Source: Escherichia coli (GTDB lineage: Bacteria; Pseudomonadota; Gammaproteobacteria; Enterobacterales; Enterobacteriaceae). From it: DNA of 64,000 nt. The DNA lies in the NCBI RefSeq assembly GCF_003334355.1, contig NZ_QOWP01000004.1. One strand, 5' to 3'. This document shows, one piece after another, positions 55,801 through 58,800 of this stretch. Position 1 is the stretch's first letter. Each line of letters starts with the position of its first letter. The position numbers are program-made.

Positions 55801-58800
55801 CCTTTCGCCACGCCCCAGACCACGGGAAGTTCCCGGTTGGCCCGCACGCCTGAAACTTGTTGCGCATTGAGCGATAAGTCATCCCCTAATACACCGGCGG
55901 TTTTCTTCGCCGCCAGTTTGCCCATCACGGAGATATCGTCCAGTAGAGTGGCGATATCATCGAGCAACGTCAGTAAACTACTCCCGGCCAAAAGCATTCC
56001 CTCTCATTTTTATTGTTGAAGGGTGTAAGTATGAAGCAAAAACGGCAGCTCTGATACTTGCTTCACAGGTCAACATTTTTTTAACAATCAAGTGCAATTA
56101 TATCTCTCGCCAGCAGAATGATTTTCACGTTTACTATGAACCACCTTTTTATTTCCACCGTGAGGGATTATGCGTTTCCGCCAGTTGTTACCGCTTTTTG
56201 GCGCGCTGTTTGCGTTGTATATCATTTGGGGCTCAACCTATTTTGTCATTCGGATTGGCGTGGAAAGCTGGCCTCCGTTAATGATGGCAGGCGTTCGATT
56301 CCTGGCAGCCGGTATTTTATTGATGGCATTTTTGCTACTGCGCGGACACAAACTCCCCCCGCTACGTCCGCTGCTCAATGCCGCGCTGATTGGCCTGTTA
56401 TTGCTGGCTGTCGGTAATGGCATGGTGACGGTTGCCGAACATCAAAATGTTCCTTCCGGCATCGCCGCCGTAGTGGTTGCAACCGTGCCCCTCTTTACCC
56501 TGTGCTTCAGCCGCCTGTTTGGCATTAAAACGCGCAAACTGGAATGGGTGGGTATTGCCATTGGGCTTGCCGGAATCATCATGCTCAATAGCGGTGGAAA
56601 TTTAAGCGGCAATCCGTGGGGCGCGATTCTGATTTTAATCGGCTCGATTAGCTGGGCGTTTGGCTCGGTTTATGGCTCGCGCATTACCTTACCTGTAGGG
56701 ATGATGGCGGGTGCGATTGAGATGCTGGCGGCAGGCGTGGTGTTAATGATCGCGTCGATGATTGCAGGTGAAAAACTGACGGCACTCCCTTCCCTTTCAG
56801 GCTTCCTTGCGGTCGGCTATCTGGCGCTGTTTGGTTCGATTATCGCCATTAACGCTTATATGTATTTAATCCGCAACGTCAGTCCGGCTCTCGCCACCAG
56901 CTACGCCTACGTTAACCCGGTGGTCGCGGTCTTGCTGGGTACGGGACTGGGCGGAGAAACGCTGTCGAAGATTGAATGGCTGGCGCTCGGCGTAATTGTC
57001 TTCGCGGTGGTACTGGTCACGTTGGGAAAATATCTCTTCCCGGCAAACCCCGTAGTTGCGCCAGTTATTCAGGACGCATCAAGCGAGTAAATGAATCCCC
57101 TGCGTGTCGATCTGCGCGCTGGCACCTTCGCCGCAGATCCACTCTTCCAGACGCTCGCTAAGCGCTTCATCCGTCAGCTTCTCGCGCCCACGTAATGCAC
57201 ACTCCCAGACAATCAATACGCGCCAGCCGAGTTCCTGCAAACGACTGATATCGCGGCGATCGCGTTCAACATTTTTACCTATCTTCTCCAGCCAGAACTC
57301 GGTTCGAGTCGCAGGCACTTTAAACAGATAGCAGTGATGATGATGCCAGAAGCAGCCGTGGGTAAATATCACGCAGCGATATTCATCAACGACAAAATCC
57401 GGGCGTCCGGGCAGACTGGCGTCCTGAACGCGAAATGCCAGGCCCTGCCCGGTTAACAGACTGGCGAGGCGCTTCTCTATCGCCGTATCACGCGTGGCAA
57501 TCGCGCGCATATTTTTGCTGCGAGTGGCCTTATCGTGAACGTCGGCCATGTTGTGCCTCTTGCTGACGCAACGCCACCGCCTGTTTGATTTTTGGCTCAA
57601 GCAGTTTTGCCACCGCGGCAAAGACCGGCACGACCACCGAGTTACCGAACTGGCGATAGGCCTGAGTGTCCGAAACCGGAATGCGGAATTTCGCTTCTCC
57701 CGGCGCTTCAAAACCCATTAAGCGCGCGCATTCCCGAGGCGTTAACCGACGTGGACGATGTTGCTGATTCAGCGGATCGTCAAAGTCTTTCTCACCCGTG
57801 GCCATATCCCAGCCGCGATCGATTAAAATTTCCGCGCCATCTTTGTAATAACGCGCAGACAGCGTACGCGTGACGCTTTGCGGATTGTTAGGATAGACCA
57901 TTCCATAACCGAAGCCGTTACCGCGCGCCTGATGTTTTTTCGCATAACGATAGAGGTACTTCCACAGCACCGGCGTCAGGATATATTTCGCCTCGACCAT
58001 CGGGTCCAGCAGCTGCGCCAGCGTCACTCGCTGTGCAGGGAAACATTCGCTGATATCACGCAGAGTAAAATCGGCTTTCAGATTAAGATCGCGACGAAAA
58101 CCCACCAGCACGATGCGTTCACGGTGCTGCGGCAGAAAATGTTTACCATCGATGATTTTCGGATCGTCCGGCCCGTTATCTTCTGCATCAGCCACGTCAT
58201 AGCCCAGTTCGTCCAGCGTCTGCATGATGATGCGGAACGTTTTACCCTGGTCGTGGCTTTTCAGGTTTTTGACGTTTTCGAGCACAAACATCGCCGGACG
58301 ACGCGCGTCGATAATGCGCACCACATCAAAGAACAGCGTGCCCTGAGTATCGCAGGCAAAACCGTGCGCCCGCCCGAGCGAGTTCTTTTTCGATACGCCA
58401 GCCAGCGAAAATGGCTGACAAGGGAAACCGGCCAGTAAAACATCGTGTTCAGGAATGTGTTTACGAATATGTTCCGCCGCCGCCTCATCACTCACGCCTT
58501 CTTTATGGCTGAGGGTGATGTCGCGGATATCTTCATTAAAATGATGCGTCGCCGGGTCGCAATAATGATTGGCTTTATAAGTGCGTACCGCATGTTTGTT
58601 CCATTCGCTGGTAAACACGCATTGTCCGCCAATCGATTCAAAACCGCGACGGATGCCGCCAATTCCGGCAAATAGATCGATAAAGCGAAACGCATAATGC
58701 GGATGATGTGCCGGTGGTTTGGGTAACAACGTTTGCAGATGGGCGAACTCTTTCTCACTTAAACGGTGCCATGCCGAGTCATTCGCCAGCGCACGTTTTA

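Follow-up and report, generated by a model that had tools for sequence, protein, structure and literature searches.

The methyltransferase Dcm methylates CCWGG sites, and the very-short-patch repair endonuclease Vsr nicks the T:G mismatches that are left when 5-methylcytosine is deaminated. Here we examine the junction of the genes for these two proteins, dcm and vsr, in a stretch of 64,000 nucleotides (nt) from Escherichia coli (contig NZ_QOWP01000004.1 of assembly GCF_003334355.1), which we will call the window. The closest known system is the dcm-vsr operon of E. coli K-12 (b1961-b1960), which was reportedly described by Sohail et al. (1990, J Bacteriol 172:4214) and by Dar and Bhagwat (1993, Mol Microbiol 9:823). 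The overlap of the two genes has been known for more than 30 years, since 1990-1993, and it is in every E. coli annotation.

In the literature, dcm is described as partly overlapping vsr (PMC4444293), and the title of Dar and Bhagwat's 1993 paper, as quoted there, names the dcm/vsr overlap. The two genes are reported to form an operon (PMC4924334; PMC12907096), and full-length transcripts from SMRT-Cappable-seq place yedR-yedJ-dcm-vsr in one operon (bioRxiv 10.1101/262964). The biological point of this arrangement is well understood: production of a mutagenic methylase is linked to production of the enzyme that repairs its T:G mismatches.

The window is like K-12 in its genes, in the neighbors yedJ and yedA, and in its overlaps (20 nt in the +1 frame between dcm and vsr, and 12 nt between vsr and yedA). 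Nothing of substance differs; the window comes from another E. coli strain. Its junction is very probably the canonical E. coli dcm-vsr operon junction, with one mRNA for both genes and with Vsr made from the ATG at 57549-57547, by a mechanism that we infer below. What is mildly new in our analysis is comparative: it is the Vsr frame that is constrained where the genes overlap, the junction varies between species, and several genera retain vsr without dcm at the same locus.

Gene identities and geometry of the junction

The junction in the window comprises these features:

57530-58948, minus strand: coding sequence (CDS) of dcm, DNA-cytosine methyltransferase; 1419 nt, ATG to TAA, 472 amino acids (aa); script check
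57079-57549, minus strand: CDS of vsr, very-short-patch repair endonuclease; 471 nt, ATG to TGA, 156 aa; script check
57530-57532, minus strand: dcm stop codon, TAA; strand reading, list of open reading frames (ORFs), and script check
57547-57549, minus strand: vsr start codon, ATG; strand reading and codon-phase comparison
57530-57549, minus strand: dcm/vsr overlap of 20 nt, ATGGCCGACGTTCACGATAA; strand reading and script check
57556-57561, minus strand: Shine-Dalgarno-like (SD) motif AAGAGG for vsr, inside dcm codons, 6 nt before the ATG; script check

An earlier note, made from the sequence alone, had put the start of a 156-aa Vsr at this ATG, about 20 nt inside the end of dcm and in a different frame. 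The start and the protein length hold to the base by strand reading, by a script check, and in RefSeq. The script check also gave an overlap of exactly 20 nt, with the dcm stop at 57530-57532, and it put vsr in the +1 frame, with its codons beginning one base later than those of dcm. The dcm stop sits 17 nt downstream of the vsr start. Counting back from the last base of dcm, the vsr ATG is 20 nt away and AAGAGG is 27-32 nt away, so both the start and the SD lie inside the upstream CDS, on the same strand.

The names given to the two genes agree with RefSeq and with curated NCBIfam families. Dcm scores 951.4 bits against NF007772 (cutoff 710) and 350.8 bits against TIGR00675 (cutoff 100.65). 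Vsr scores 182.7 bits against TIGR00632 (cutoff 97.85), with residues 1-118 aligned to positions 1-119 of the 119 in the profile. Also, residues 2-156 of Vsr align without gaps to chain A of PDB entry 1cw0, and the single difference is S131 instead of T. (At this residue, which is encoded at 57157-57159 of the window, Vsr has Ser in DEALSERL, and K-12 and 1cw0 have Thr in DEALTERL.) The catalytic residues are reportedly D51, H64, and H69 and the zinc-binding residues C66, H71, C73, and C117 (Tsutakawa et al. 1999). All of these residues are present in the Vsr of the window, because the only difference from 1cw0 is at position 131. Directly upstream of vsr, and sharing 20 nt with it, is the gene for a C5-cytosine methyltransferase, dcm. 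Nicking at T:G mismatches in the CTWGG/CCWGG context was shown for the near-identical Vsr of K-12 (Hennecke et al. 1991, as cited in PMC4924334). By its near-identity to the annotated E. coli dcm, the Dcm of the window is presumably specific for CCWGG as well.

The earlier note had proposed a comparison with the annotated K-12 genes. In RefSeq, K-12 MG1655 has vsr at 2030448-2030918, dcm at 2030899-2032317, and yedA at 2029539-2030459, which gives the same overlaps of 20 nt and 12 nt. The RefSeq overlaps are also the same in strain M217, whose DNA matches 2201 nt of the window without a difference. This 2201-nt query, from the dcm-vsr region, is 100% identical in many complete E. coli chromosomes. 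Of the 5426 complete E. coli genomes, 5368 have a match, mostly at 95-99% identity (422 at 99% or above). An 85-nt query for the junction was found in 5320 of the 5426 genomes, 3275 of them at 99% identity or above. For the 2.2-kb dcm-vsr region, 58 of the 5426 genomes gave no match. Two of the matching places are on records that are labeled as plasmids, and the PLSDB "plasmid" NZ_OL790696.1, at 4.8 Mb, is evidently a chromosome.

The start codon of vsr

The coordinates alone prove nothing about where vsr starts: by chance, many genes will have an ATG in another frame close to their 3' end. The crystallized recombinant protein is no independent evidence either, since it reflects the annotation, and we therefore turned to comparisons between species. 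A scan for Vsr with one genome per species gave 80 loci from Enterobacteriaceae, with 77-98% identity at the protein level. From the ungapped slices of the junction, which covered 58 loci plus the window, we computed the entropy of each alignment column. (Two loci with a short gap between the genes, L069 and L081, are included; the pattern is unchanged.)

Upstream of the ATG, the mean column entropies at vsr codon positions 1, 2, and 3 are 0.52, 1.30, and 0.56. The peak is at vsr position 2, which is position 3 of the dcm codons. Within the 20-nt overlap, the means are 0.34, 0.18, and 0.72, and downstream of the overlap they are 0.12, 0.15, and 1.18; in both of these regions the peak is at vsr position 3. 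Thus, upstream of the ATG at 57547-57549 it is the third position of the dcm codons that varies most, and from this very ATG onward it is the third position of the vsr codons. This switch of phase means that protein-coding constraint acts on residues 2-13 of Vsr. In the 20 shared nucleotides it is the Vsr frame that is constrained, and the last residues of Dcm form a free-running tail.

The reading frame of vsr is closed just upstream of the ATG in other species: in two subspecies of Salmonella enterica, a stop codon (TAG) lies 3 nt upstream, and many other species have an in-frame stop 12-63 nt upstream. Furthermore, in the 17 species without dcm upstream, vsr has the same ATG and Vsr has the same N-terminal sequence. 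In these species Vsr is 153-166 aa long and is made by itself. It has also been reported that, when the first 14 residues of Vsr are removed, its endonuclease activity and its activity in repair are both lower, and MutL no longer stimulates it (PMC2715241). As judged from these comparisons, ATG 57547-57549 is the true start of vsr.

Two other placements of the start have to be weighed against this evidence. Vsr might instead start at the next in-frame ATG (Met14, at 57510-57508), downstream of the dcm stop, so that the coding sequences would not overlap; the earlier note had named such a start as the outcome that would overturn its reading. An ATG is indeed present there, and the first 20-22 residues are missing from the crystal structures 1vsr and 1odg. 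But in 58 species codons 2-13 vary as coding sequence of the vsr frame does, at position 3 and hardly at all at positions 1 and 2; the ATG at 57547-57549 and the N-terminal sequence are kept even without dcm; no SD is present in the 20 nt that precede Met14; the TIGR00632 profile aligns from residue 1; and the truncated protein is impaired. We consider a start at Met14 to be highly improbable. Conversely, Vsr might start further upstream, at TTG 57600, 57621, or 57711, or a +1 frameshift within the overlap might yield a Dcm-Vsr fusion. The vsr frame of E. coli does stay open for 171 nt upstream of the ATG, up to a TAA at 57720. Yet the variability upstream of the ATG tracks the dcm frame instead of the vsr frame, and the upstream TTG starts are excluded because the in-frame stops, 3-63 nt upstream, close the vsr frame in other species. 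None of the three TTG codons has an SD, and the species without dcm make Vsr of the same kind by itself. Dar and Bhagwat are also said to have seen no fusion protein. An upstream start or a fusion is therefore extremely unlikely. Overall, codon-phase conservation, the in-frame stops in other species, and the missing SDs led us to reject TTG 57600, 57621, and 57711 and ATG 57510 as starts of vsr.

Conservation of the overlap and coupling of vsr to dcm

We classified the junctions of the 80 loci, with the aid of ORF maps. An intact dcm overlaps vsr in 56 of the 80, or 56 of the 62 with an intact dcm upstream. The overlap is 20 nt long at 48 of these 56 junctions, 17 nt at four, 14 nt at two, and 35 nt at two, and all of these lengths are 2 mod 3. 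The dcm stop is TAA in all 56, and vsr starts with ATG in 49 and with GTG in 7. All six loci from Escherichia carry the identical 20-nt overlap.

Among the other loci with an intact dcm, two have a short gap between dcm and vsr (35 nt in Buttiauxella sp. B2 and 12 nt in Enterobacter sp. Ag1), and in four loci from Buttiauxella the genes are separated by about 0.9-1.0 kb and an ORF on the opposite strand. The inserted ORF encodes 172 aa with a signal-peptide-like N-terminus (L052:2185-2703, L054:2035-2553, L058:2185-2703, and L063:2037-2555), and it has no match among the NCBIfam models. At 17 of the 80 loci there is no dcm upstream of vsr, and at 13 of these 17 the stop of yedJ lies 11-18 nt before the vsr ATG. 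The species that have an intact vsr at the yedA locus but no upstream dcm belong to Kosakonia, Phytobacter, Pseudescherichia, Klebsiella (K. oxytoca and K. spallanzanii), and others. (In L027, L035, L038, L040, L046, L056, L057, L059, L061, L066, L068, L071, and L082, vsr starts at about position 3001; further loci without dcm are L034, L036, L045, and L074.) The last locus, from Klebsiella indica, has a remnant of dcm (L032:2822-3020), with about 180 nt between yedJ and an intact vsr. Within the remnant, 70 nt match nt 952-1021 of dcm, and the last 24 nt match the 3' end of dcm, including the overlap. This looks like a deletion-type loss of dcm that has been caught midway. By these comparisons, the overlap prevails in the group of Escherichia, Citrobacter, Salmonella, Klebsiella, and Enterobacter, and it is not obligatory for a functional-looking vsr.

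The ribosome-binding site of vsr is partly conserved. Across the 58 loci and the window, the GAG core of the SD has an entropy of 0.21-0.78 bits at positions -10 to -8, and positions -7 to -1 before the ATG are highly variable in all phases. The duplex of SD and anti-SD has an energy of -5.8 kcal/mol in the window. The median is also -5.8 kcal/mol when the SD is embedded in dcm, versus -8.0 kcal/mol in the loci without dcm, where the SD is intergenic. Between the loci with the overlap and those without dcm or with a gap, the SD strengths differ with p = 0.005 (Mann-Whitney test), which is uncorrected for phylogeny although the species are not independent. The weaker embedded SDs are suggestive: they fit some reliance of vsr on upstream translation.

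Earlier experiments also bear on this. Dar and Bhagwat reportedly found that one promoter serves dcm and vsr, that the two are not made as a fusion protein, and that Vsr is synthesized efficiently only when dcm is translated. That the translation of vsr is coupled to the translation of dcm is a claim of the literature, and it rests on this work from 1993. The dcm-6 allele, with a premature stop at codon 45, leaves no vsr activity either (PMC4444293, citing Dar and Bhagwat 1993).

If the genes are coupled, then both proteins would be made from one mRNA, with transcription from upstream of dcm, as the literature describes. Initiation at vsr would use the AAGAGG SD, which is itself dcm coding sequence. 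A ribosome that terminates at the dcm TAA would cover the vsr start, 17 nt upstream, and it might re-initiate there after a short backward search, or it might hold the site unfolded for a new 30S subunit. By either route, the amount of Vsr made would follow that of Dcm, at a low ratio.

In the window, the junction could also fold:

57520-57580, minus strand: predicted RNA hairpin that encloses the SD, the vsr AUG, and the dcm stop; weak and E. coli-specific; folding compared to shuffles

The hairpin has a minimum free energy of -26.4 kcal/mol (z = -2.6), and 3 of 200 shuffled sequences fold equally well. We rejected it as a conserved coupling element, since its pairs are kept at 68.7% across 57 sequences, compared to 68.4% in shuffles. 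We found no covariation support for it; one pair (alignment columns 20 and 69) is partly compensated, which is within chance for related sequences.

Several observations weigh against coupling through the overlap. The loss of vsr activity in dcm-6 could equally reflect transcriptional polarity. The overlap seems to be dispensable, given the short gaps, the inserted ORFs in Buttiauxella, and the 17 loci without dcm. The hairpin would offer a simple unfolding mechanism, but it is not conserved, and RNAalifold found no consensus structure at the junction across species. Also, both very-short-patch repair and the amount of Vsr are reported to increase in stationary phase (PMC2715241; PMC12907096). 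Strict coupling alone would not produce this rise, so coupling is not the whole story.

This leads to an alternative that accepts the start at 57547-57549: the overlap might be real but neutral, with Vsr initiating independently at its own SD and with the unconstrained tail of Dcm running to the first stop inside vsr. Against this, an overlap persists in 56 of the 62 species that contain dcm. The drift in its length (14, 17, 20, or 35 nt), and the retention of an intact vsr where a gap or an inserted gene separates it from dcm or where dcm is missing, fit the neutral explanation. A properly spaced SD exists, as independent initiation would require; on the other hand, the SDs that are embedded in dcm are weaker than the intergenic ones. 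Only the vsr frame is constrained in the overlap, all phases are free to vary in the 7 nt just ahead of the ATG, and there is no conserved RNA structure, all of which favor neutrality. Even distant plasmid-borne methylase-vsr pairs abut, however, with overlaps of 1, 4, and 8 nt. The conclusion attributed to Dar and Bhagwat, that translation of dcm is needed for efficient synthesis of Vsr, also counts against it. So does the abolition of vsr activity by the dcm-6 nonsense mutation (PMC4444293), while the reported dependence of Vsr activity on growth phase (PMC2715241; PMC12907096) speaks for it. Overall, we think that a neutral overlap is rather unlikely, and we prefer the coupled operon.

A more elaborate form of coupling would give the length of the overlap a role of its own. 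A ribosome that pauses at the dcm stop might hide the SD and AUG of vsr, and the hairpin at 57520-57580 might mask both when dcm is not translated, so that Vsr would be throttled by the translation of dcm in both directions. We consider this to be unlikely. If it were true, then the two-way throttling could be one cause of the reported scarcity of Vsr in growing cells and of its increase in stationary phase. Since related genera have repeatedly lost dcm and kept vsr, a role for Vsr that does not depend on Dcm would also be implied.

Flanking features and related systems

On either side of the two genes, the window contains:

56170-57090, plus strand: CDS of yedA, drug/metabolite exporter, 306 aa, convergent with vsr; NCBIfam NF008432 (513 bits) and RefSeq
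57079-57090, both strands: convergent 3' overlap of vsr and yedA, 12 nt; script check, and the RefSeq annotation agrees
59015-59710, minus strand: CDS of yedJ, HD phosphohydrolase, upstream of dcm; NCBIfam NF007515 (459 bits)

The vsr/yedA overlap had also been reported in the earlier note, and its 12 nt recur in the RefSeq annotations of K-12 and M217. Across species, this overlap ranges from about -28 to +48 nt. It looks incidental, as a by-product of variable C-terminal tails.

Upstream, a longer ORF for dcm is possible from GTG 58957, according to the ORF list; the annotated start differs. A perfect 9-bp inverted repeat (CGGCCATCT / AGATGGCCG, with arms 1 nt apart) occupies 58958-58976. 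It lies inside the 66-nt spacer between yedJ and dcm, adjoins GTG 58957, and ends 9 nt before the annotated ATG of dcm. No T-run follows it. A consensus scan of 56800-59900 found no promoter-like site, nor did it find a terminator-like site on the minus strand between dcm and vsr; such scans are weak evidence. Elsewhere in the window, matches that reach the gathering score of Rfam lie at 510-587 (plus strand), 51791-51877 (minus strand), 60280-60369 (plus strand), and 18814-19113 (minus strand). These correspond to the C0465 small RNA, DsrA, RseX, and three tRNA genes, which are ordinary for this region of the E. coli chromosome.

Beyond K-12, the nearest comparison is with type II methylase-Vsr-restriction modules on plasmids of Aeromonas media, Acidithiobacillus ferrooxidans, and Thauera humireducens. 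Their Vsr proteins are 41-48% identical to the Vsr of the window. As in the window, a C5-methyltransferase gene is followed by vsr on the same strand, and the two coding sequences overlap. But the overlaps in these modules are of the short, common type (1, 8, and 4 nt, respectively, at L083:1801, L084:1801-1808, and L085:1801-1804) and a restriction gene is attached, while in the window the overlap is 20 nt, Dcm is solitary, and no restriction gene lies beside it. In two of the three modules, vsr also runs into the restriction gene that follows it in the same orientation, with 4 and 14 nt shared. The module from Thauera has its restriction gene on the other strand, and this gene overlaps vsr convergently.

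More generally, the junction resembles coupled pairs of overlapping genes in operons (for instance, those with an ATGA overlap), in which the genes are neighbors on one strand, the downstream start and its SD lie inside the upstream CDS, and one transcript carries both genes, as is reported for dcm and vsr. In those pairs, the start is within a few bases of the stop, whereas the vsr start is 17 nt upstream of the dcm stop. Because of this distance, re-initiation at vsr would need a backward search, or else coupling would work via an unfolded site.

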